Positions 27,068-42,058 of a stretch of 64,000 bases of DNA are shown piece after piece. The number at the start of each line of letters is the position of its first letter. Within the stretch, counting starts at the first letter, position 1. Under the pieces are notes generated by a model that worked only from the letters and a program-made list of their open reading frames with translations, searched no databases and had not been told where the DNA came from. Where the stretch lies: contig ML978139.1 of NCBI GenBank assembly GCA_010015805.1, positions 62,001-126,000 of the forward strand, read 5' to 3'. The stretch comes from Rhizodiscina lignyota. Lineage: Eukaryota. The position numbers and the translations under genes were made by a program.

Positions 27068-28755
27068 TTACACAGTTTTGTCCGTCGTGCCAACATGCTC
27101 CGTCGTCACGATGCTGCCCTTCCTCTCAATTGCTTCCACCCTTTGATCAAGCTCGTATGATGTGAATTCGCTTTTGTTCATGGTTGGAACGAACAATGGC
27201 GCATTATCGAACCTATTGCTGCGCGTTAACAGGTTATTCACAACAGGTGGATACAGTCACTTACAGCCAATTCATTTCCTCCAACGGCCGCTTCGCAGTC
27301 TCTGGCATCAGCGCCCAGAAGAACAGTGCGTTAGTGAAATTGCAAACAATGAACAGGATATACCATCTCCATTTGATGGTGACCATCGCAGTAGATGTCG
27401 TCTGCCCGATCATGGTGTTGAAAGCAAAGCTCGTCATAGTCGCAATGGAAATGCCCTTGCTTCTCGTCCTGGTGTCGAATATCTCCGCAGGGATGATCCA
27501 CGACAGTGGGCCACAAGTGGCGCTGAAGCAGAAGTTGTAGAGCCAGGTCATGACAATGAAGCCCCAGGCAGCACTGCTGTTGCCCGATACACCTGGCGGG
27601 AACTGTACGATGAGGATAGTGGCGATGATGAACGTCACCATGTTGCCGAGATTGCCGAGAATCAGAGGCCATCGGCGCCCAGTGTAATCAATGAAGAGCA
27701 TGCAGAGGAATTGTGCGAAGAGAGCAATGAACGAGCTTATGGCTTGGTATTCGAGCGTCTTTTCCGTGCTGATACCCAGCTGGCCATATATAACGGGGCT
27801 GTAATACTGAATTGAGAACAATATTAGCAGTTGTCGTATTATACGAAGAGGGAGTAGAGTACCTGGATTGCCGAGACACCAGTCATCTGCACAGAAGCTT
27901 GCAACGAGCACGCCAGGAAGAGCCGACGGAAAGAAGATTTGTTTCGGAAGAGCTCGACGTATGACTTGGCCTCGTGTTCATGCTCGAATGTGATTGCTTC
28001 CTGAATCTGCTCATATTCGGCTCGAACCCATGCGTCGTTCTCATCGCCGTGAGCGTGCAACTTCGCAAGCGTCTTGAGGCCTTCATCCGGCCGTCCGTGG
28101 TCGATGAGCCAACGCGGAGATTCGGGAAACAGAAGGATAAGAAGCGCCAGAACGCCAGCTGGTATGATCTGGATACCTAGGCCGATGCGCCACTGCCCCT
28201 GATCACTGTTTGCAATATTAATGACCTCGCCTAGTCGATATCAGTATGGTTAATTCTGTGATTACAGTCTTTACCCGTACCGTAAGAGAGCCACGCCGCG
28301 ATGAGCGAGCCAACACCCAACATGAATTGTTGTAGGGAGGTAACTCGACCTCTGATGCTCGGATGGGTCACTTCTGCCTGGTACATCGGGATGATCATCA
28401 CAAGAAACCCCACCCCCAAGCCCGAAATGCATCGTCCAGCATACAGATAACCCAGGTTCTGGGCTCCAGTCTGCAAGCCACCCCCAAGCAAGAAGATGAC
28501 GGCTCCAAGCAGGATCGTCTTCTTTCGTCCGATCCAGTCGCCAGCGGGTCCTGCTAATCCAGCGCCAACGAACGCACCGCCAGTGAAGACGGAAACGACT
28601 GCGCCGGTCTCAGAGGACGTCGGATTGAACTTGGCGATAAATGCCTTTGAGGAGACGACTTCCGCAATAATACCAAGATCATAGCCGAACAAGACAGAGC
28701 CGAGAGAGGCAAAGACTGAAATGAGGAACTGGTACCACTTTGGTGGAATCGCCAT
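27068..28755 (-). CDS. MFS sugar porter
   Basis: FGYDLG, DWIGRK, PMYQAEV..PSIRGR, FPESPRWL, DYTGRR, WIIPAEIF..TRSKG and PETAKRPLEEM. Three introns; last exon FDNAPLFVP...DKTV* (stop at 27068-27070). Confidence 0.92.
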
Positions 28756-29291
28756 GGTGAGACAGAACAGCTTCAACGCCGGATGGAAAATAATTGAACA
28801 CACAGGAACGGGCTCACTTCACAGAAGGAAAAACTGAAATTACAATTACCGATCTGCATATATAGGACACAACACGGGGGCGTCATTGCTTCGCAATGTG
28901 ATATCCCGTATGCAAACCCTTAAAATCCACCCCGGTCTTCCAGTGTCTGGTTCGACGGCTCTAGGCCGTCACGCGGACATGGATCCGAAGATGTTCAAGT
29001 TGCGGGGAACTGCACAATTCAACGAGAGGCTCTTCTCGATATCCTGCCCAGTGTGAGAGAAGCACGACGTGATGCTGAGCTAGGGTTGGCGCCAGGTTTT
29101 CGGAAGAGCCGAGGAGGCCGGCAGGAGAATACGGTTATTCCACCAATGAGAGTGGAGCAGATGCTCGGGATATCTTTACAAGGCCATTGCTCCAATTGCG
29201 AGAGTGAGAGCTGCTCAAGCATCACTGCCGACCAGTTGGCCGTGGAGAGAATTTGCAATTTTCAGATTCTTCCTCAACGAACCCGGACGCC

Positions 29292-30990
<1,699 letters not shown>

Positions 30991-31031
30991 TGAGCTTCAA
31001 GGTCATTGGCGTTGCGATACACCTAGACATG

Positions 31032-32249
31032 CTAAAGATGAAGTTTGCTCTCAAGATCATCCCACCTCCCTCTCCGTAATGTGTCCAGCTCTCGAAGCTT
31101 AGCAAGCCAGTCTCGCATTTCTCGCGTTGTCACGTATTTGTTGCCACCTTCTATATCCAGGTATGTTGCGGCATACTGCAGCAAAGCTAGATATATGAAC
31201 TTGCAGTCTTCGTCAACCTGGAGCATTTCCTTGATGCGGTCCATTTCACGCTCGAAGTAGATTACGCGGTCGTGATTCGTGAAATCGCGAACAATTACAG
31301 TTTCAACGCTGGAATTCGGCGATATCGTGCCCATAAGGAAAGCATGATAGTCCCACGCCGACTGGTTGAACGGGTCCGTAAGGGCGGTCTGGATGAGCTC
31401 CAGCTCTTCGTCCAGCATTTTCCGGCGAGCGACATTGTCCGCTTTTCGCTCATCCAAGAGCCTTGGAATCAGCTTGCTTCTGTTGTGCCATGCGGAGAAG
31501 TTCTTCAGGCCGGAATATATCATTTTCGTTGTATACGCAAACTCGTCCTCCACCATGCTTACCCTAGCTCCACTCTTCTCAGAGAGGCGCTCCAGGCTGG
31601 CTACGACAGTGCGCCTGTAACTCCAGCCGTGGAAGTTCCTCTCATCTCGTGCCAGCATTTTGCTGACAAGTCCCAACTCTTTCTGCCAGAACGATACTGC
31701 CACTGCTGTGGGCAAACGCTGCTCCGCCTCTTCGAGTAGCCACCTCCTGTAATTCCATATCCAGTAGCATTTTGGGAACTCAATGAGTAGTCCCACCAGC
31801 AGACGGAGATCGTCAGATATGAGATCGAGAATTCTTTGTTGTTTTGGAGGGAGTTGGTTATCTTCGGTCGTTTCGGAGGTGCTCGGTTCCTCCGTAAACT
31901 GATGTTGGAGGATTAGGCGGCGATGGTTCCAGATGGTATAGTATTCGGGGTTTTTGGAAAGTAGCTTCGTAGTGAGGGCAAGTACTTCGATCGTATACTC
32001 CCGCTCTGAAATCTGTACAGCATCTGTCAGTCATGTCCGCTTTCTCCGTTGTGGTTAACATGACGCGTTCGCGAACCTTGGCGTTTACCAGCTCCACCAA
32101 GCTCTGATATTCCTGTATCTTCTTCTGCTCCTTTGCGGTATCACGACTACCCGAGCCTGCAACTCTCGGCACACCGTGCTAAAACATGTCAGTCGGTCTT
32201 GCTATTGTAGAGCGTGTCGGCAATCTTGGTGAGCACTCACACTTGCCAT
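31032..32249 (-). CDS. BET4: Rab geranylgeranyltransferase (type II) alpha subunit
   Basis: Micro-exon ATG GCA AGT (32249-32241) spliced to HGVPR. Prenyltransferase-alpha repeats NPEYYTIWNHRR, PKCYWIWNYRRW, RNFHGWSYRR, NFSAWHNR and DPFNQSAWDY. Confidence 0.9.
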
Positions 32250-32774
32250 AGTGCTTGGAATGTTGTAAGAAGATTAGTGGTCGTCGCTGCCTCAAAGGTA
32301 GAAGAGCGGAAGAGGCGGAGCTCAACAATGGCGCGCCTTCGCGCGATTCACCTCGTTTCACATTCTTCTGTTCCTCTTGTTTCTCTTCCGTCGAATATCT
32401 TTCAGTGAAAACCGTTGCTGCATACTAATCCCAGGATACCGACCGCAACAAAACATCACGGAGTGATGGGACGGCCCCCGTTTGTCTAATGCACCAGCTC
32501 GACATCGTGCTACATTTCACCTCACTGGACTGGCCGTCACTCGTTATCGGAGAGCTTCTTTCTCAGGCTCACATTCATACAGCTCAAGCTATTTTCCTAC
32601 TCGGTTCACACCTCATGCCACACATCCTAGGCAGGCTGCTCCACAAATCACATGAAGGCACCGAGCTGCATTCCTTGTAACAGCTCAGACAAAATCTTCT
32701 CGAAGACAATACCTAGATCCTGATTCGGACGACCGTGTGCCAGCGGTACCGGGTTGAGACGCACTAATTACACC

Positions 32775-35662
32775 ATGGAAATTTTTCCCACGACGCCCTT
32801 TCCATCCGGAAGCGGTTTGCTCACGCCTCCCGATTCTACGGGAAAGGTCTTCAGTACACCAGATCGTACACCTCGTGATTCTGATCACTCCTTTGAGCGG
32901 CCCCGATTATCAAAGCAGAGGAAATACTGCCAGTTGCCATCAGAGAATGATCCAGACGTTCCAGATCACCGGCAATTCCATTCGATCGGCAAATCAAAGC
33001 CTTTATGGAGGCACGCTATCAGCTTGAATCTTCTGACACCCCCGTCAACACCTCCATCGAAGCCCCAACGGAAAGCATCTTCTCGACGAAGAGCCACCTT
33101 CGCACAGTTTCGACGCGAGTTACAGTCGACTTACAACAGACAACTTGATAGATCAGCCAACAACCGCTCAGCCCATGTGGCACCTGCGCTCGTTCAGTTC
33201 GATGGAGCCAGTGACAGGCTAAGTGAATGCTCTGTTCATGATAAAGAGCTAGAAGCGGCATCAACTCCTCAAGAATATCTGCCTCTTCCGTCTTCGCCCA
33301 TCCAATCACCCGTCCAATCTCCCTCTCGGGTAGCCAGCCACACTCACTTCCAGGTCGATTTGAAATCTCCTAGCAATTGTCCCCTTCCAATACCTCAGTT
33401 ATCTGGCCTCGATACGCCAACGCCACTTAGTCGGGCCATACCCGCTCAGGGTGCCTTTCCCTTCCCCAGCCAAGGACGCGAAGTTAGCAGTCTTTCCCCA
33501 CTTGCTGTTAGATCGTCTCGGCCTCAGTCACTGCCAACACAGCGATTTAACAGCCCTATTTCGCCATCCCGTACTAGAAGATTCAGCGGAGGACTCGACC
33601 GATTTATTCCAGAGCGAAGTCCAACAGGCACTGCTCATGAAACCTTTCGACTTGGCAAACCACCCGACCAACTTGCCGATTGCGAAAGGATGTTTCGGCG
33701 ACAGCAGGTAAATCAAGATCCATTCAGGAGCCCTTCCAGAAGATCACGGGGACAGACTCAGGTTATTAGTCGTTTGCCGACTGCTGCCGTTGGCTCAACC
33801 ACTGTGGTCACAAATGGCGTCGGTACGCCTTCCCAGCAGACGACGGGTGGGCTCCGCCAATTTAGCGCTGGTGCTATCTGGAGCATTGGAAGCGCCACAA
33901 TGGGGGACAGTGTCCCCGGCATACCCGACGGAAGAGGTGGGCTCCTTGGTAGTGGAACGAATGCACCTCTCTACTCGTCTAATTTTCTCAGTCAAACAGA
34001 CTCTAGAAGAGAACTTGAGCTGTATGAGAGTCGACTTGCCCTGGCTTTTGACATCGACCAGACCAGCAGAGTGTTAAGCTCACCAGAGTCATCCGATGGA
34101 TCACCTCAACGTCTCTCGAAATCAGGAGCTAGCAGTCCCCACACTCCAGTGAAACTGCGAGCACAGGATGTCCAAGGGAATATAGTCTGGAGAGACAATA
34201 CGTGGTCCCGAGATGGGAATGTTACGCGTAAATTCATCGCCTTGGACAGTATGTCGGAGGATCTGGCTAATTCCCTCTCAGTGCCGTCGAAGCCAACAAA
34301 GCCAAAGAAGCCCGTCCCTGTTATCCCTTTTAGATAAGTAACACAGCTCATACTATTAGCAAGCAGCTTATTGAAAATACAGTTTTGGACGCCCCGTCAT
34401 TGCGAGATGACTACTATTGCTCACTTTTGGCGTACTGTGTGACTGCCAGATGCCTTGCGGTAGGACTCGGCAATCACGTATATCTCTGGTCGGAAGCACG
34501 TGGAGTCAATACTCCTGAAAGTCTCAATGTCTTCGCAACTTCGCATGTCACTTCACTGGACTTTTCTTCCATCCAAGGTGGCAATAGCATTCTGGCGGTC
34601 GGTCGTGCGGATGGGCGAGTGGTACTTTGGAACCCTTCAGATGACCATCCGCGCTTCAATACCAAGCAGCCAAACCCAGTCTCATGCCTCTCTTTTAGGC
34701 CAAACGTTATCAAGCGAGCGTCTACGCGAGACTCGCATCTCGTTGTAGATACTGAAGAGCTCCTCATCGGTGATGAGATCGGTCACGTCTATTTGTATGC
34801 CATTGAATGGCCAAGCGAGAGCGATCGAGACCTATTTAATTGGTCAGGCGCAATGACGTTGATCGCTCGCGTCGATGTTCATGCCCAGCAGATCTGTGGC
34901 CTGGCCTGGTCCGTTGACGGTGATTTCTTCGCATCAGGTGGAAATGATAACGTCTGCGCCATTTTCGAGACGAAGAAAATCCTGCGCCACGACACTGCCA
35001 CAGCACAAAGCCCCCTTACCATGCACATAGCATCCAATGGCGACAGATCCTGGACAGTAGCTCCTGAGAACGGTGCTGTGCTCTCAATATCCGAGGCTCA
35101 CATCAAGCACAAATGGACGCTCAATGCCGCAGTGAAAGCTATCGCGTTCTGTCCGTGGCAGCGAGGCCTTCTCGCAATAGGCGGCGGATCTAACGATCGC
35201 TGCATCCACTTTTACCACACCATCTCTGGTGCGTGCCTTGCAACGATCGATTGCAGCGCGCAAATTACAAGCCTCATCTGGAGCACGAGTCGCCGCGAAA
35301 TATGTGCCACTTTTGGATTCGCGCAGCCGGAGCATCCGTATCGAATCGCGGTATTCGCATGGCCGAGCTGCGAACAGGTGGTTGCCATTCCATGGTTCGA
35401 CGAGCACAGAGCGCTGTACGCGATCTCTTATCCTGGTGGACCAAATGTGGGCAGAAAGAAAGGTGAAGGGGGTGCCTGGTGGAGTCGGACAGCGGAAGAA
35501 GGATGTATCGTCGTGGCAACGAGCGATGCGAGTATCAAGTTTCACGAGGTTTGGAGTGAGGAGAGGAGAGCTACTGCTGGTGGGAAAGGATTGCTAGGTG
35601 GGAGTGATATCTTGGAAAGCCTGCACGGAGTTGATCAAAGGGGAAATGATAGCATCCGATGA
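32775..35662 (+). CDS. Cdc20/Fizzy-family APC/C coactivator, Ama1-like
   Basis: C-box DRFIPER, VLDAPSLRDDYY, WD40 motifs (HAQQICGLAWS, ASGGNDN, AAVKAIAFCPW, GGGSNDRCIHF) and C-terminal IR tail (NDSIR*). In-frame intron 34228-34281 and a non-canonical intron 34334-34380. Confidence 0.88.
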
Positions 35663-36301
35663 GCCTGGATTCTCGGTTGAGCCCGTCCACAAACGTCAAC
35701 ATGGAGCCGGGGATACTGCCGAGACAAGATAGCCATCAGCGTTGCGCTGTATCTTCTGGTTTGGGTCGTTTGCGGCGAAAGGTATTATTAGATTGAGCGT
35801 ATATCATTGGTGGTGTCGCTTGCAACAGAGTTCCTATCCTCAGCCACTACATCTCTAAATGCTCCGCCCTAAAACCGTTATCAGCAATGCGAACTCTAGT
35901 AGAACATGAATTAGGTATGCCTCTTCAATACATAAGTAATCGTCATGATTGATGCCAACACCTGTAGCGAAGTTCGGACCAATGACATGCTGATATAATC
36001 GTTCGACCCTGCAGGTGGGCCTGGATGCTCGAAGGGGATGCGTTGCCGAACCAAACCTTGGAGGCATTGCGAATCCTCAAACTCAGCGAATTGTGCACTC
36101 TCCCTACGTTGCATTTTACGCTCATTCTCTGTAATTGTATTCTGAACTACGGAGTATAGCCCTCGCTTTCATCAGTTCTTAACATTGAGTTCGCGGTAAA
36201 ACGCAACGCGCTCTTGACGCGCAAGCTCCGCACCCGACGAAGTACAATGCTATCATCAGCTTCTTGCAGATAACGGACGCGTGCATAGAAGTCGCACAAA
36301 G

Positions 36302-38131
36302 ATGCCAGTCCAGCGAACGATATTCGGGCGGCCGGTCGTCCTTCATATGCCCCCACGACGATTCCAAATCCTCTTTGCCTTCATCATATTCCTCCTCACG
36401 ACCATCATCCTCTTTTCAGGGCCGGAGAATGTCAAGGAGAAAGTGGAAGAAGCCACGGAGAAGATCCTAGAGGGCATACCCGCGTCGATACACAATCCTT
36501 TCGCAGCGTCGTCTCACAAACCGCCGGTACAAGATAACAGCACGTCTGGAGAGTCGAGTTGGTTTAGCGACTGGAAATGGCGCCATCCGTTCTCCTCGTC
36601 CGTCACATTCGACGAGAATCGTTCGGTGCTCCCTCCATTGAAGAATCGCCCATACGTATATACATACTATGAAAGCAAAAACAAGAAGGACAACGCCGCG
36701 CTCGACGCGGAGGAGAAGCTACTGTTAATATGGAGAAGGGCATGGTGGGCACAGGGCTTCAGGCCAGTAGTCTTGGTACCTGCGGATGCAATGAACAATC
36801 CGCTATATGAGAAACTGCAGATTTTGAAGACACAGGAGTTTCCGGATGCGTTGGAATATGACATTTCCCGGTGGCTGGCTTGGGGGCATATGGGGACTGG
36901 AGTATTGGCGAATTGGCTAGCTCTGCCTATGGCACCTTATGACGATAAACTATTGTCTTTCCTAAGGCGGGGAGAGTACCCCGGAGTCATCCGATATGAT
37001 GGGCTGCAGAATAGTTTGTTCTGTGGAGAGAGTGGTGCTATCAACGACTTGCTCACCAGCACCCTCGACAAATCTAACGATCTGATAGCAGCCATGTCGG
37101 TGATTGACGCTGCGGATAAATCGAAATATACGAGCGATCCCCAGCACGATGCGATAGCATTGTACGATTTGAAGAGCATCAGAGCGAACTATAAGGCTGT
37201 TGACGAAACGCTGACCCGAGAGGGAGGCCAGGCTGAAGGCCTTGTTATGCTGGGAGCACTCATCAATGCGCATCTGCATATCGTGTGGCAGAACACCTTT
37301 TCAGCTGGGATTGCTGTCGTGAAGGCGCTACGGCACATGACAACCGTATTGGAACCAGCCATGCACATTGCAAAGAGTCTGCAAAAGTGCTCACCTTCTC
37401 CAGTTGCAAACTCATGCCCACCAAACCGTAAATGTCAACCCTGCGAGGCACACGAGATCGAGATCAGGGAACTCTCAACATACAAAAACCAATCGAATCT
37501 TTTCGTCATCAGCGCAGTGCCTCATCCGTACACTGCAGCTACGCTAGACAACTGGAAGCCAAGCATCGACATCCCATTCATCCGACGCGAATCTGCGCGC
37601 GATCCATGGCTGTTTGCTGTCACGAAGGAGTTGCTCGGTCCTGCCGTCAGCAGCCAGTCGCGCATTGTGCACTTCAAGGACGCCGTTGCTGGTGAACACG
37701 GCGCGAGCCACTCACTCTGGCTGACTGCTGAGCGTGAAACCCACAAGGACTTGAATTGGATATTTGGCTTCGACTTACCAGCACTCCCAGAGCCACCGCC
37801 TACGAACACTACGGCTGCAGAAGACGAAGCATCTACGGAGTCGGCAGACGTGCCTCTACTTGATGAAGAGATCCGGCCGGGTGAGCCGAAGGAGCGAGAG
37901 ATCAAGCAGGAAAGGCAGATGCTCAAGGCCGCGAGAGCAGCTTTGAGGAGTAGGAGTGGAAAGATGATGCGATTGAAAGGGGCCGTGGAGATGTGGAACC
38001 TTGCGGATACGGAGGCGTGGAAGTTCACAAGGGCTTTCAGCGCAAGGAGAAGGGTTGAGAGACTGAGGTGGGAAGAAGAGGAAAAGAAGTTCGCGGGCGC
38101 CGAGAAAGGCCGGGGAGCTAAGTGGTGGTGA
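36302..38131 (+). CDS. Uncharacterised type II membrane protein
   Basis: Intronless 609-aa ORF with an N-terminal signal anchor (RRFQILFAFIIFLLTTIILF), Trp-rich blocks and a Cys cluster (CSPSPVANSCPPNRKCQPC). Confidence 0.8.
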   Translation: MPVQRTIFGRPVVLHMPPRRFQILFAFIIFLLTTIILFSGPENVKEKVEEATEKILEGIPASIHNPFAASSHKPPVQDNSTSGESSWFSDWKWRHPFSSSVTFDENRSVLPPLKNRPYVYTYYESKNKKDNAALDAEEKLLLIWRRAWWAQGFRPVVLVPADAMNNPLYEKLQILKTQEFPDALEYDISRWLAWGHMGTGVLANWLALPMAPYDDKLLSFLRRGEYPGVIRYDGLQNSLFCGESGAINDLLTSTLDKSNDLIAAMSVIDAADKSKYTSDPQHDAIALYDLKSIRANYKAVDETLTREGGQAEGLVMLGALINAHLHIVWQNTFSAGIAVVKALRHMTTVLEPAMHIAKSLQKCSPSPVANSCPPNRKCQPCEAHEIEIRELSTYKNQSNLFVISAVPHPYTAATLDNWKPSIDIPFIRRESARDPWLFAVTKELLGPAVSSQSRIVHFKDAVAGEHGASHSLWLTAERETHKDLNWIFGFDLPALPEPPPTNTTAAEDEASTESADVPLLDEEIRPGEPKEREIKQERQMLKAARAALRSRSGKMMRLKGAVEMWNLADTEAWKFTRAFSARRRVERLRWEEEEKKFAGAEKGRGAKWW

Positions 38132-38904
38132 TAGGAATTGGACGATTGAGGCGCGAGATATCTACCTGCGACTAACTGCATAGTTTTCGGCGTTCAGCAC
38201 TGATCCCTCCATTCGTTGCCATCTTGTATTGAAAATGTACGAGTAGATGGACGACGCGGGCCACGAAGTTTGCAATGCTTCTTGTATAGATAAAGTGCGT
38301 GCGATTGTAATTCATTGATGAAGCTGAATGAGCCCTTGTCAAGCGTGGAATCCATCGGGATACCAGGGTCATTATCCTTCCAAACGTCGGAATTCTGCAA
38401 GCGCTTCTTTGCACCCAGTAACTCACGGACAGCTGCAGTACCCAGCAGCAGGAGACAGCGCCCCTTGCCTCATCTCACGCCGAAGTCCGCCCCAATTAGG
38501 ATGGGTGCTAGATCTTATCACGGTGGTTGCATGCAACCTACCCCACAAACCGCAGATCGTAGCAAACTTCTCACACAACCACGTCGGCATGCCTCCCGTG
38601 CACGATAACGTTTCAGCAATCGCAGCAGCTTGCTGTCTTACCCTGTAATGTAAACTGCCCAGGTGATAAACGGCGGGCGATAGTAACCCTCGCGTTAAGG
38701 TAACAGTAGCATGTCGCTTCCCTTTTCGTACCTTTGTCCGCCGGCACTCCGTAATGCTCGTATCTTTTGTTGAACCATGTTCGCTCCGTTCCCTTAAACG
38801 TTGTCTATACGATTCCCATGAAACCCAAATCTTTTTTTGTGAAGTTTACAGGTCTCTTCAAGGATCCTAGGTCAGGGCCCGAGTATCAGTACACACACAT
38901 CGAT

Positions 38905-40576
38905 ATGGCGTTCGAGTCCGGCAAGGCTGGCGACATCATGCCAGAGGAACCGTCCATTATCAAAATCGATTCTGCTGGCTCCCAAAAGATCATTGGCGAA
39001 GATGGAGAGGTTATGTTTACGATTGACCCAAAAGCAGAGAGGCGTCTACTATGGAGGTTCGACCTCCGCATCCTGCCAATCCTGGCGGTCATGTACCTTT
39101 TCAACTCACTCGACAGTAAGGAATAGTTCTGGGGAAAGGGCATCTAGGATACCTATACTAACCTATCACAGAGGCGAATCTGGGCAATGCGAAGACTGCT
39201 GGACTCGAGAAATCGCTGGGGCTGAAAGACAATCAATACAATATAATTTTGAGTGTCTTTTTTGTCCCATATGTCCTCACAGCGCCATTCTTGGGTATAG
39301 CTGGAAAGAAGTACGGGCCACATCGCATGTTGCCAATTATGATGTTCACTTTCGGCTCAATGACCCTCCTTACCGCCGCAGTCCAGAATTTTGGAGGACT
39401 CATGGCACTTCGATGGTTTCTCGGAATGGCTGAATCCGCATTCTTTCCTTTGGTTATATACTATCAAACAACGTAAGTGCCTTCAGACTGCTCAAGTCAA
39501 TACAGTACACTCTGACACGTCTTTCAGCTTCTATCGTCGAGGCGAGCTCGCCCGTCGCCTCGCACTCTTCTACGCTGCCTCTAATATCGCATACGCATTC
39601 GGCGGGCTTCTCGCGTTCGGTGTTTTCCAAATACATTCGGGTTCGTTCGCAAATTGGCGCTATCTGTTCATCGTCGAAGGGGCATGCTCGGTGGTTTTTT
39701 CTGTATTCGCTTTCTTCTATCTTCCGCACAGCGCCGCAGACGCCAAGTTTCTCAACGAAGAGGAGAAGAAGCTGGCGTTCTACCGCATGCAAGTCGACTC
39801 GAGCTCTGTGGTGAATGAAAAATTCGACTTCAAAGAAAGCTTCAAGATTCTCAAGCAACCAACTAGCTGGGTGATTCTTGGTATTGAGATGTGCCTGGGT
39901 GTACCGCTTCAAAGCGTGTCGCTTTTCCTTCCTCAGATTATCGCAAGACTGGGATACAGTACCGTCAAGACAAATCTCTATACCGTCGCGCCGAACATCA
40001 CAGGAGCCGTAATGCTTCTTGTGCTTGCATTCGCGAGCGATTTCACGAGGTGGCGGTTCCCGTTCATTGCTGCGGGCTTCATCTTCACATTCATCGGATT
40101 CATAATATATGTTAGCATAGATGTTCAGCATGATCTGCACGTTGCATATTTTGCTTGCTTCATGATGACTTGGTACTTCCATAGCTCCCTTACACGTTCT
40201 GAACTTTTCTGACATGTCAAACAGGGGAACCTCGGCACCTTCGGTACTGCTCGACGTTTGGTACAACAACAACATTGCTCACGAGGGCCGTCGTGTCGTA
40301 CTTACGTCCTTTGGTGTCCCGATCGCCAATCTGATGGGTGTTGTCAGTAGCAACATCTTCTTAAATAAAGATGCGCCGAAATACATTCCGGCACTGGCAA
40401 CCACTGCGGCATTCGGTGCACTTGGTACCGTACTGACGCTTCTGCTCGGCACTTGGATGATAATTGATAACAAGAAGAGGAACATGCAGCAAGGGGTGAA
40501 GTTGACACCGAAGGATGTGCCGACCGAGAGATTGAGAGATGGACCTGGGGCGCCGGAGTTTCGTTGGGTTTACTAG
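38905..40576 (+). CDS. MFS transporter, anion:cation symporter (allantoate/nicotinate permease) family
   Basis: ERRLLWRFDLRILP, LDKANLGNAK, RWFLGMAES, FYRRGELARR, WRYLFIVEG and C-terminal PEFRWVY. Three introns. Confidence 0.92.
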
Positions 40577-40885
40577 CCAACAGGATGTAAGGCCCGAAAG
40601 CAGTAGAAGAAGATCTCGAATAAAAGCAATTTCCCCAGATGCAGCTTCCCAACTACAGTCTTTCTTGGGTGCCCATTTTGTCGCTTTTGACACCACTTTA
40701 ACACCCCGGTGTTTAACCCCTCACTATTTAAACCCCATTTCGTTCACTTACAAGGTCCTTCTGTGCCACAATCTTTCCTCATCATCCCCATTATACTTGG
40801 CTATCATCGAACGACCTACGCCAACACACTCAATCTTCCTTCCACAACCTCATCACCAACCACGCACCACACCATCGAAACAAAA

Positions 40886-41668
40886 ATGGCGCTAAGTAAG
40901 GAAACCCGCGACCTGTTGGAAAACAACGACTCGGACAAAAACGGATCTAAGCCTTCGACGTCTTTTGACTCGATACCAACGGAGATCCGGCAGAAAATTT
41001 TTGTACTTGCTGTTGGTGACCTTGAAGACCCAGACATTCGATACTTTCCTCCGCCAGGTGAACGTCGCAACAACCCGGTGGTCCAGCAGGTGAAGCTTGT
41101 TCAAATCGAGTCCGCACACAAAAAGTGTCTCGAGTCGTCGAAGACAATAAACCAACTCCAGCTCGTATGCCGTCGATTTCACGCCGACATGGCCTTTGTC
41201 ATTAAGCGCTATATTTCACAGCTTAGCGCACTAAGTACACAATACCAGCTCTGCAACATCCCTGATCAGATCGACTGCTATCTTCTCGAAAAGATGACTT
41301 CGGCACATTGGCTAGCACTCTATAGGGATCCCACGATCTACGCTCGCGAGATGCCCGTCTTTCGCGCATACAAAGCATACTCTGTGTGGCTCGAAATGGA
41401 GTACACCAGGGTGACACGATTGACGATACTTATGGGTGTCAACGGAATGCAACCAAACTTGAGATTCTACAGGATAGCTAAGATGCTAAGGAGGAAGCTT
41501 GAAGAAGAGAAGGAAAGGCCAAGAGGGGAAGTGATCGTTCGGAGGTCAATTCGAAATCGCGCCCGGAGTCATAGAGGCGTGAGGGTGATGAAAAGGGTGA
41601 CCTCGACAGAGGTGGAAAGAAGGCAGCAATACATAGTTGCTCTTCAATACAGGCGAGGATATCACTGA
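40886..41668 (+). CDS. Hypothetical protein with an F-box-like N-terminal motif
   Basis: ATG in CAAAAATGG context; SFDSIPTEIRQKIF and LQLVCRRFHADM segments resemble a split F-box/2EXR-like motif. Confidence 0.55.
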   Translation: MALSKETRDLLENNDSDKNGSKPSTSFDSIPTEIRQKIFVLAVGDLEDPDIRYFPPPGERRNNPVVQQVKLVQIESAHKKCLESSKTINQLQLVCRRFHADMAFVIKRYISQLSALSTQYQLCNIPDQIDCYLLEKMTSAHWLALYRDPTIYAREMPVFRAYKAYSVWLEMEYTRVTRLTILMGVNGMQPNLRFYRIAKMLRRKLEEEKERPRGEVIVRRSIRNRARSHRGVRVMKRVTSTEVERRQQYIVALQYRRGYH

Positions 41669-42058
41669 AAGCTCAGTTACAATACCGCAGCCAGTGTTTA
41701 TTTAAGTTATACAGCTTCAATAAACTAAACATGATTTGTCTCGGTCGAAAAGCATGCGCACTATTTCTATTGAAACTACGGGCACGTGAATGCGGAAAGC
41801 TTTTAGTTATTAGAGACTGCAGTGAGCACTTTGTTGTAATATAGCTCACACATTCTTTTGATGGTTGAAGAAATGATTGGGAAATCTCGACATGAAATTG
41901 CATGAGCCGAAGTCGTCTCTCGGTATTCTTTGACGCCGTACCATACTATATACGGACTAGTGGATATTGAAAATTACACCACCTCCCATCTGAACTCTCC
42001 AGCTGCCTCGCAAGCTTCCCGCTCTTGTTCACCACGTATCGCCAATTGAACCGCGTCA

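Follow-up and report, generated by a model that had tools for sequence, protein, structure and literature searches.

A probable U2-type AT-AC intron in an AMA1-like APC/C activator gene of Rhizodiscina lignyota and its relatives

In the window, the whole 64,000-nt stretch of Rhizodiscina lignyota DNA analysed here, the coding sequence of an AMA1-like activator of the APC/C is interrupted by a 47-nt segment (34334-34380) that begins with AT and ends with AC. On the evidence of the sequence, we consider it highly probable that the major (U2-dependent) spliceosome removes this segment as a true spliceosomal intron. Its conservation among orthologues, the U2-like donors and the restoration of the protein junction together indicate a real and ancient U2-type AT-AC intron, which would belong to a known but rare kind. 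From the same features we infer its removal from the RNA in R. lignyota and the spliceosome that acts on it.

Anatomy of the interrupted gene

The region 34382-35659 matched the CDC20/Fizzy WD40 domain PF24807 with an E value of 4.3e-60 and 203.9 bits (cut-off 200), the upstream ORF encoded ...LDRFIPER..., and the protein ended in ...NDSIR*. We take DRFIP to be the C-box and the terminal IR to be the IR tail, both motifs of the Cdc20/Cdh1 family. The earlier note had called the product an AMA1-like APC/C activator, and the combination of C-box, WD40 domain and IR tail agrees with membership in the Cdc20/Fizzy family. We read the gene as an AMA1-like activator of this family, the AMA1 label coming from the source names of the best matches (at most 69% identity), which include 'meiosis-specific APC/C activator protein AMA1', 'Bcama1' and 'Meiotic fizzy-related 2'. 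The start of the gene (Table 1) is provisional, with additional 5' exons possible. Removal of the inferred upstream intron 34228..34281 leaves W-(25 residues)-R ahead of VLDAP, the same spacing as in the intron-free models P0016 and P0004. A homologous upstream intron was predicted under a strict filter in 12 of 25 orthologous loci; the finder was too strict, leaving 13 of the 25 loci with no candidate, and conservation of the micro-exon accordingly refers to the window and these 12 loci only.

Table 1. Features of the AMA1-like gene, in window positions
Feature	Position	Strand	Remarks
First coding exon, AMA1-like gene	32775..34227	+	First ATG of ORF 32724..34337 taken as start; 3' end set by the inferred canonical intron
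C-box (DRFIP) of APC/C coactivator	33597..33611	+	Translation ...GGLDRFIPERSP... in ORF 32724..34337
Inferred canonical GT-AG intron, 54 nt	34228..34281	+	GTAAAT...CTAAT...CAG; in frame, without stop
52-nt micro-exon	34282..34333	+	(L)PSKPTKPKKPVPVIPF plus AG of the Arg codon; coding for P-x-x-P-F-[RK] kept in orthologues
Rejected canonical alternative intron, 47 nt	34320..34366	+	GTTATC...CAG; would swap conserved VIPFR for LIENT
Probable U2-type AT-AC intron, phase 2	34334..34380	+	47 nt; AT-AC ends in 27 distinct introns of this site, in three class-level clades
5' splice site ATAAGT	34334..34339	+	U2 consensus GTAAGT with A at +1; known U2-type AT-AC consensus
Putative branch site CTTAT, degenerate CTRAY	34367..34371	+	Assigned by position only; A at 34370, 10 nt from 3' end
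3' terminal AC of the AT-AC intron	34379..34380	+	Followed by exon bases A-G (AC/AG)
Last exon	34381..35662	+	Third base of the Arg codon, WD40 propeller (VLDAP...), IR tail 35654-35659, TGA 35660-35662

The upstream frame (ORF 32724..34337) terminates as ...KPKKPVPVIPFR, with AGA at 34332-34334 and the stop TAA at 34335-34337, and the downstream frame (+2) starts at GTT 34382 and reads VLDAPSLRDDYY. When 34334-34380 (ATAAGT...ATAC) was deleted, AG was joined to A to give ...KPVPVIPFR/VLDAPSLRDDYY, the translation running ...PVPVIPFRVLDAPSLRDDYYCSLLAYC. Deletion thus restores both the frame and the conserved junction, which upholds the earlier proposal of an AT-AC intron splitting the PFR-VLDAP motif. 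Since the TAA forms bases 2-4 of the intron, its retention would expose an in-frame stop. The GT at 34338 lies 3' of this TAA and, as proposed earlier, would keep the stop; pairing the donor at 34334 with the AG at 34381-34382 likewise fails as predicted, because deletion of 34334-34382 shifts the frame into a stop. A boundary slid by 2 nt to the AG at 34381-34382 was also considered. It gives PFR-F-LDAP, with F or L variable in relatives, and was rejected, since the Val codon is retained and varies synonymously, fused or curated proteins read PF[RK]/V, and one orthologous locus (L052) has no AG at the equivalent position.

The canonical alternative foreseen in the earlier note, a GT-AG intron at 34320-34366 read as ...KPVP-LIENTVLDAP, does exist; if it were used, the AT-AC ends would be a coincidence. 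Its ends are canonical, its length equals that of the AT-AC intron, and it is in frame. However, it deletes VIPFR, which is encoded in frame just 5' of the AT and belongs to a P-x-x-P-F-[RK] motif conserved in all intron-bearing and intron-free orthologues, and its donor, GTTATC, is poor. In relatives, the curated or spliced forms read PF[RK]/VLDAP, and the orthologues conserve no equivalent canonical alternative: chance in-frame ones, loosely defined, occurred at 19 of 27 AT-AC loci, and the other 8 had none at all. We therefore regard use of the canonical intron as very unlikely.

It is unlikely that misassembly created the intron ends. Over window positions 28000-42000, a Logan contig 45,979 nt long from a DNA run (word depth 150.5) showed no differing letter and no gap, so that 34334 and 34380, the two bases singled out in the earlier note, lie within 14 kb of identical sequence, although this contig may derive from the assembly's own source data. 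A single G-to-A change at 34334 would be enough to imitate an AT donor, but both ends would have to be wrong, since a GT donor at 34334 leaves the AG at 34381-34382 out of frame, and 26 other distinct orthologous introns have the same ends. A decayed pseudogene that has lost correct splicing is at odds with the two intact flanking ORFs (537 and 442 codons), the latter with the full PF24807 domain. Artefact or decay is, in our judgement, extremely improbable.

The same intron site in orthologues and in public gene models

The intron survey covered 80 orthologous metagenome loci together with the window and yielded 33 distinct introns, 45-53 nt long, at exactly the same phase-2 site. Their ends were AT-AC in 27, AT-AG in two, AT-AA in one and GT-AG in three, so that the AT...AC ends, whose conservation the earlier note proposed to check, are indeed conserved across orthologous loci. 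The recurrence of AT...AC in 26 other distinct orthologous introns lies far beyond chance, although the 27 AT-AC loci are relatives and are not 27 independent events. Of the 30 introns with A as first base, 27 had C as their last base, and all three with a first G also ended in G; this co-variation of the ends, like their conservation and the anatomy of the sequence, is demonstrated directly. All 30 A-start donors (ATATGT 12, ATAAGT 9, ATACGT 4, ATGAGT 3, ATAGGT 2) fitted AT[AG]NGT, the U2 consensus with A at +1, and T2, G5 and T6 were invariant. Every one of the 33 introns had a branch-site-like A 10-11 nt from its 3' end. A script called [CT]TRAY-type sites in 29 of them, and those of L002, L069 and the window were assigned by eye at 10 nt; L055 has TTAAC at 10 nt. 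At 10-11 nt the orthologues mostly show CTRAY or TTRAY. The window has just CTTAT at the conserved 10-nt distance, a degenerate form of the fungal CTRAY that counts against the main reading.

Both exon borders bear marks of coding constraint. The first base of exon 2 was A at 32 of the 33 intron-bearing loci and G at the remaining one, and the Val codon 3' of the intron was GTT in 18, GTC in 7, GTG in 4 and GTA in 4. The Pro and Phe codons on the 5' side also varied synonymously, and the exon constraint reaches the AT boundary.

AT-AC introns were found in Dothideomycete-, Leotiomycete- and Lecanoromycete-like clades, and in a WD40 tree of 56 distinct rows the three major clades held 15, 3 and 12 AT-AC rows. 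No intron was present in 19 of the 56 rows, and the 'no intron' label changed at least five times on the tree. GT-AG ends occurred in three tree rows plus L057, and the derivatives of the site include GT-AG introns slid by 2 nt. The intron has disappeared on several occasions, and in some lineages its ends have become GT-AG. Besides Botrytis cinerea and Paraphaeosphaeria minitans, Alternaria- and Pyrenophora-like species probably carry the intron.

The conserved PF[RK] junction was missing from 64 of the 120 public orthologue models listed, whereas in the other 56 PF[RK] directly preceded VLDAP or VLNAP. In a typical faulty model the 52-nt micro-exon is skipped and the propeller begins I/L-LDAP, because predictors accept only GT/GC-AG introns; the AG right after the intron AC misleads them. 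The wrong public models are thus a consequence of the same AT-AC intron being present in many distantly related fungi.

Three sets of protein records provide indirect support for splicing, through the records themselves and the lengths of contigs. The Botrytis cinerea BcDW1 model P0117 carries a 16-codon read-through from Ile (AT.) to Thr (AC.) exactly where the B05.10 model Bcama1 (P0116), described as manually curated in the accessible text of PMC7719232, has PFK/VLDAP. The Paraphaeosphaeria minitans models P0127, P0128 and P0129 have Met (ATG)...Thr (AC.) where P0005 has PFR/VLDAP. In a Lecanoromycete-like (lichen-fungus) relative, a fused 901-aa ORF occurs on mRNA-sized contigs (P0086 on nine contigs, the longest 3,330 nt; P0124 on one contig of 3,229 nt). 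This ORF is the sum of P0121 (444 aa, with PFR-stop at its end) and P0122 (457 aa, beginning at the Val codon), halves that are separate on other contigs, although the intron ends of the P0086 species are unseen and a PFR-stop would fit a GT donor equally well.

Spliceosome type and splicing mechanism

The assignment to the U2 type is based on motifs and on published surveys. An intron of the U12 type, removed by a minor spliceosome, could have the same AT-AC ends; a short, fixed branch-to-3' distance (10-11 nt) and a 3' base that varies among relatives (AC, AG, AA) are also typical of that type, and AT-AG and AT-AA U12 introns appear in Table 2 of PMC1557818. Nevertheless, the window donor is ATAAGT instead of ATATCC, none of the 33 introns begins with ATATCC or GTATCC as the U12 donor [AG]TATCCTT would require, and none contains TCCTTRAY, the branch motif that U12 introns have 10-15 nt from the 3' end; just the 10-11-nt spacing resembles the U12 type, the donor and branch motifs being U2-like. 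In addition, the accessible portions of Ascomycota surveys (PMC10639083, PMC2846911) report no minor splicing, neither introns nor the U11, U12, U4atac and U6atac snRNAs. A U12-type intron is hardly credible on this evidence, in accord with the earlier note's preference for the U2 type. In a bolder reading, at odds even lower than those of the rate-limiting gate discussed below, the intron would be the remnant of an AT-AC intron once of the U12 type, taken over by the major spliceosome as minor splicing disappeared from Dikarya; if true, such an origin would explain the fixed branch spacing of 10-11 nt and the tolerated AG and AA 3' ends.

Two other routes to a continuous message were set aside. 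A-to-I editing of intron position +1 would produce GT-AC, an incompatible pair, and a G or A at -1 is not known to be the favoured context for such editing. Unconventional splicing of the Ire1/HAC1 type was likewise set aside because the spliceosomal donor and branch signals are conserved.

In the U2-type route that we favour, the donor ATAAGT would, except for the A at +1, base-pair with U1 and U6 as a consensus fungal donor does, and the adenosine 10 nt from the 3' end would be used as the branch point. At the second step, an A-C non-Watson-Crick pair between the two terminal bases of the intron would replace G-G, and this pairing would account for the choice of AC at 34379-34380 over the AG two bases further 3'. 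Joining AG to A would then give ...PVPVIPFR/VLDAP..., the conserved start of the WD40 propeller. The intron was probably AT-AC already in the ancestor common to Dothideomycetes, Leotiomycetes and Lecanoromycetes at least, with repeated intron losses and occasional conversion to GT-AG thereafter.

Such a mechanism has precedents. Parker and Siliciano reportedly engineered AT-AC introns in S. cerevisiae in 1993; introns of this kind are spliced in that yeast without a minor spliceosome, through a first-last A-C pair, as we propose here. The available text of PMC5029451 and PMC11585973 gives U2-type AT-AC introns the consensus /ATAAGT and an A-C pair in place of G-G. According to the same excerpt of PMC5029451, a nested AT-AC intron of S. 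cerevisiae RPL30 with an atypical donor yields a side product of 1-2%, whereas the AMA1 AT-AC intron would be the sole route to the conserved protein and has a donor that is consensus apart from +1.

The closest counterparts are the U2-type (type II) AT-AC introns of human SCN4A and SCN5A, which according to PMC1557818 are conserved from human to pufferfish; U2-type AT-AC introns are also hypothesised there for some filamentous-fungal xylanase genes. The SCN and AMA1 introns share AT...AC ends, a donor of the /ATAAGT type and the absence of U12 motifs, and both have conserved borders, in the case of AMA1 over three fungal classes. Unlike the SCN introns, the AMA1 intron is a predicted one and lies in a fungal APC/C coactivator gene; it is also very short (45-53 nt) with a branch-to-3' distance fixed at 10-11 nt, and its site is documented with natural AT-AG, AT-AA, GT-AG and 2-nt-slid GT-AG derivatives.

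Possible RNA-level control of AMA1 and significance

AMA1 is gated post-transcriptionally in two other lineages. In S. cerevisiae, AMA1/SPO70 has a meiotic, Mer1-dependent intron with a non-consensus donor and, near the donor, an AYACCCUY enhancer (PMC11585973). In F. graminearum, a premature stop in FgAMA1 (PSC33) is restored by sexual-stage A-to-I mRNA editing (PMC10776026). FgAMA1 and the window gene are probably orthologous, both ORFs are interrupted in the DNA and both full proteins need an RNA-level step, but the remedy is editing of a stop codon in the one and splicing in the other. The S. cerevisiae and window genes belong to the same family and both have an intron with a non-consensus donor; that of S. 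cerevisiae is GU-AG with a Mer1 enhancer, whereas the AYACCCUY motif was absent from all 33 introns at the window site. The S. cerevisiae AMA1 intron also occupies a different position in the gene.

The earlier note saw in a weak AT-AC intron a possible developmental switch. On this idea, which the parallels favour, splicing of the intron would be slow or would depend on a factor of the sexual stage, so that splicing in sexual tissue would turn AMA1 on. We hold this idea to be tentative and on balance unlikely, and the same applies to its vegetative side, in which the intron would be retained, the TAA at 34335-34337 reached and no WD40-bearing protein made. Apart from the gating in two lineages, the position of the stop is favourable: on retention it is met within one codon in 16 of the 33 introns and by codon 64 in all 33. 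The AT-AC state has also been retained over three classes. A weak hint comes from P0121, whose sequence coincides exactly with residues 1-444 of the fused ORF; the longest contig that carries it, at 3,368 nt, is mRNA-sized and would fit a transcript that retains only the AT-AC intron. On the other hand, the Mer1-type enhancer is missing, the donor is a perfect consensus except at +1, and AT-AC ends would be expected to last long under neutrality too, as two substitutions are needed to revert. The intron losses and GT-AG conversions described above imply, moreover, that a gating role is dispensable in many lineages and is not universally required. Slightly more doubtful still is the view that the AT-AC ends have been kept because they render the second step of splicing rate-limiting, so that the intron would act as a gate and restrict full-length AMA1 to the sexual phase.

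Introns of the U2-type AT-AC kind are extremely rare, with 24 counted among 610,067 introns of five species (PMC1557818). In filamentous-ascomycete RNA-seq, AT-AC junctions occur at low frequency (69 of 14,305 in PMC4324775; see also PMC3577648). We found no published description of the AMA1 AT-AC intron in the searchable literature, subscription journals and supplements aside. The literature match on AMA1 together with AT-AC introns was a review of yeast splicing. Papers matched on AT-AC introns in Pezizomycotina, judged by title and opening of the abstract, deal with polyketide-synthase or secondary-metabolite genes, antisense transcripts or U12 intron loss, and none with the AMA1 intron; no link between Cdc20-family genes (FZR1, CDC20) and minor introns was found among the literature matches listed.

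Gene annotation that allows the AMA1 AT-AC intron would fix models in many genomes of plant pathogens and lichen fungi. A deeply conserved fungal AT-AC intron also constitutes a natural experiment on the interaction between the first and last intron nucleotides and on the reversion of non-canonical introns, and its natural AT-AG, AT-AA, GT-AG and 2-nt-slid GT-AG derivatives sit in otherwise intact genes. Because RNA-level gating of AMA1 is known in two other fungal lineages, the intron offers a testable case for a third mechanism. If the gate were true, it would be a third independent solution beside Mer1-dependent splicing and the A-to-I stop restoration of Fusarium, and would have persisted over hundreds of millions of years in Dothideomycetes, Leotiomycetes and Lecanoromycetes.

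The AT-AC intron and a probable upstream neighbour

The downstream exon of the AMA1-like APC/C activator gene encodes a CDC20/Fizzy WD40 domain (PF24807, E 4.3e-60, 203.9 bits against a cut-off of 200), the C-box (LDRFIPER) lies in the upstream frame, and the protein C-terminus is IR. The best public relatives share at most 69% identity with the window protein; source names among them include 'meiosis-specific APC/C activator protein AMA1', 'Bcama1' and 'Meiotic fizzy-related 2', which are annotations, not tests. An earlier note had reported an AT-AC intron between the two frames, and this was confirmed: its removal restores the junction, giving ...PVPVIPFRVLDAPSLRDDYY, and its ends are shared by orthologous introns. 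Joining the same donor to the AG at 34381-82 throws the reading frame off, as also stated there, and here runs into a stop; a canonical pair from 34320 (GTTATC) to 34366 (CAG), also 47 nt, yields ...KPVP-LIENTVLDAP. Assembly error at the intron ends, a concern of that note, is unlikely because window 28000-42000 is matched without any difference by a 45,979-nt Logan contig (word depth 150.5) from a DNA run; the assembly itself may have been built from this run.

Features of the AMA1-like gene and its surroundings in the window
Feature	Position	Strand	Description
Upstream frame	32724..34337	+	ends ...SKPTKPKKPVPVIPFR; AGA 34332-34334, then TAA 34335-34337
Canonical intron, predicted	34228-34281	+	54 nt, GTAAAT...CTAAT...CAG; in frame, stop-free
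Micro-exon, predicted	34282-34333	+	52 nt, between two very short introns
AT-AC intron	34334-34380	+	47 nt, ATAAGT...ATAC
Downstream frame, shifted +2	34334..35662	+	reads VLDAPSLRDDYYCSLLAY... from GTT at 34382; ends ...NDSIR-stop
Long open frame	36218-38131	+	637 codons stop to stop, downstream of the AMA1-like gene

A second, canonical intron very likely lies just upstream of the AT-AC intron. With this predicted intron removed, exactly 25 residues run from a conserved Trp to the Arg of PFR, the same spacing as in the intron-free orthologue models P0016 and P0004. Under a strict filter, 12 of 25 tested orthologous loci were predicted to have a similar upstream intron together with a micro-exon of some 46-55 nt. 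If retained, the window's upstream intron would add 18 residues without breaking the protein. Among loosely predicted candidates for such upstream introns, the distance from the branch A to the 3' end is 5-31 nt, more varied than at the AT-AC site.

Orthologous introns and intron class

Metagenome contigs were searched with a profile; this gave 290 relatives, and the best 80 were retained. Among these and the window, 47 loci carry an intron at the same phase-2 position, representing 33 distinct sequences of 45-53 nt; 27 of the best 80 have no intron at the site, and L012, L037, L051, L071, L072 and L077 were unscored (upstream DNA too short or pattern absent). The comparison of orthologous loci called for in the earlier note found AT...AC ends conserved in 27 of the 33 distinct introns, the remainder being AT-AG (L046 and L050), AT-AA (L031, identical to L033) and GT-AG (L045, L047 and L048). 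Donors were ATATGT in 12, ATAAGT in nine, ATACGT in four, ATGAGT in three, ATAGGT in two, and GTAAAA, GTAAAC and GTAGGT in one each. T2, G5 and T6 were constant in all 30 A-start donors, and neither a U12 donor nor the TCCTTRAY branch motif occurred in any of the 33. These features strongly support the proposed assignment to the U2 type rather than the U12 type. All 33 have a branch-site-like A at a distance of 10-11 nt from the 3' end (script-found in 29; by eye in L002, L069 and the window, where the motif reads CTTAT).

Coding constraint on the exon reaches both intron boundaries. The Pro and Phe codons before the intron vary synonymously, the split codon appears as AG|A, CG|A, AA|A or AA|G, and the Val codon after it is GTT in 18, GTC in seven, GTG in four and GTA in four; exon 2 opens with A in 32 and with G in one. 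In intron-free orthologues the matching codon is CGG (6), CGT (3), CGC (3), CGA (3), AGA (2), AAG (2) or AAA (1). Of the 27 AT-AC loci, 19 have loosely defined canonical in-frame alternatives and eight have none; these alternatives vary by locus, and not one keeps PF[RK]|V.

During exon ligation the two terminal bases of an intron form a non-canonical pair, in which A-C can substitute for G-G; an engineered AT-AC intron was spliced in yeast, without a minor spliceosome (Parker & Siliciano 1993, cited in PMC11585973, PMC5029451, which also describe the pairing). Known U2-type AT-AC introns share the consensus /ATAAGT and are very rare, with 24 among the 610,067 introns of five species; those of SCN4A/SCN5A have kept their borders as far as pufferfish, and some have been proposed in fungal xylanase genes (PMC1557818). 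RNA-seq reports describe AT-AC junctions at low frequency in Trichoderma longibrachiatum (69 of 14,305; PMC4324775) and among the non-canonical sites of Fusarium graminearum (PMC3577648), and AT-AC is described as rarer in fungal annotations than in those of plants and animals (PMC7072748). The Ascomycota surveys in PMC10639083 and PMC2846911 report no minor introns or minor snRNAs. Because of the A-C pairing, the known U2-type cases and this reported lack of a minor spliceosome, the best reading is that the major spliceosome would remove the AT-AC intron, the 3' AC being chosen by compatibility with A1 and a fixed distance from the branch point.

Spliced and read-through gene models in relatives

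In Botrytis cinerea, the B05.10 model Bcama1 (P0116), from a set described as manually curated (PMC7719232) and also present in Logan contig records, is near-identical to the BcDW1 model (P0117) except at the intron site. P0116 reads ...SLPVAPFK|VLDAP, whereas P0117 has 16 extra codons in the downstream frame, from Ile (AT.) to Thr (AC.), a read-through that by its sequence is a 47-nt AT...AC intron. Likewise, the Paraphaeosphaeria minitans models P0127, P0128 and P0129 carry 16 codons from Met (ATG) to Thr (AC.), and P0005 (four strain records) reads PFR|VLDAP. In a Lecanoromycete-like species, the 901-aa P0124 on one 3,229-nt contig equals P0121 plus P0122, which are split on other contigs: P0121 (444 aa) ends PFR-stop and is identical to the first 444 residues of the fused ORF, and P0122 (457 aa; one contig of 6,436 nt) has the Val codon as its first codon, taken as a GTG start. 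P0086 (901 aa) is found on nine contigs, the longest of 3,330 nt, and is the same as P0124 but for two residues. Since it sits on mRNA-sized contigs, the fused form is consistent with exact excision at PFR|V; the PFR-stop of P0121 would also fit a GT donor, the intron ends not being visible in that species. The longest contig with P0121 alone (3,368 nt) approximates the fused-form contig plus the intron, a weak hint of a transcript retaining only this intron. Together, these records indirectly support splicing at the RNA level in relatives.

The AT-AC intron may, with rather low probability, act as the developmental splicing switch proposed in the earlier note. Budding yeast AMA1 is described as gated by Mer1-dependent splicing (PMC11585973), the premature stop of F. 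graminearum FgAMA1 (PSC33) as restored by a sexual-stage A-to-I change (PMC10776026), and retention in the window would lead to an immediate TAA. Several points speak against the need for such gating: the intron has been lost repeatedly and converted to GT-AG, its donor is otherwise consensus, and a Mer1-enhancer-like AYACCCUY was absent from all 33 distinct introns.

History of the site and gene models

Three well-supported groups emerged when 56 distinct WD40 translations were placed in a quick maximum-likelihood tree, from which rows below 340 aa and duplicate sequences were left out; by best match to named proteins they are Dothideomycete-like (28 rows, 15 AT-AC; AT-AC loci 82-96% to Alternaria, Pyrenophora, Paraphoma, Stagonosporopsis, Plenodomus, Massarina and Pleomassaria proteins), Leotiomycete-like (11 rows, three AT-AC; 82-90% to Pseudogymnoascus and Cudoniella) and Lecanoromycete-like (17 rows, 12 AT-AC; 70-76% to Heterodermia, Gyalolechia and Psora). 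These counts are not independent events because the rows are related. The 'no intron' label requires at least five changes; because the tree is unrooted, ancestral AT-AC is the parsimonious reading, not proven. The AT-AG, AT-AA and two GT-AG rows form one Helotiales-like subclade (starred) with intact WD40 ORFs (427 aa), which looks like stepwise conversion from AT-AC through AT-AG to GT-AG with viable intermediates. In U2-type splicing the second step should be blocked when A1 is combined with a 3' G or A; the AT-AG and AT-AA versions stand in intact genes beside GT-AG relatives. In L057 the intron has canonical GT-AG ends and is slid by 2 nt to phase 1, some 50 nt ahead of match start 3001; as acceptor it uses the AG that belongs to the exon in the AT-AC form, and the 5' exon gains two bases. 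Such a slide is a possible route from an AT-AC to a canonical intron.

We examined the 120 best long orthologue models (P0001-P0120) of 477 matches with E <= 0.001 among 8000 candidates. PF[RK] stands straight before VLDAP in 47 and PFR before VLNAP in nine, whereas the conserved junction is absent from 64: 60 have another stretch before x-LDAP (21 V, 21 L, 15 I, 3 F) and four have yet other junctions. The frequent I/L-LDAP start is the expected outcome if a predictor joins the upstream-intron donor to the AG overlapping the true boundary (AC|AG-T) and so skips the micro-exon. Models conflict within species, as in B. cinerea (P0116 against P0115 and P0117) and P. minitans (P0005 against P0127 and P0128). 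The AMA1 intron adds a new member, conserved over great evolutionary depth, to a rare class of introns already known, and this matters in practice for gene annotation.
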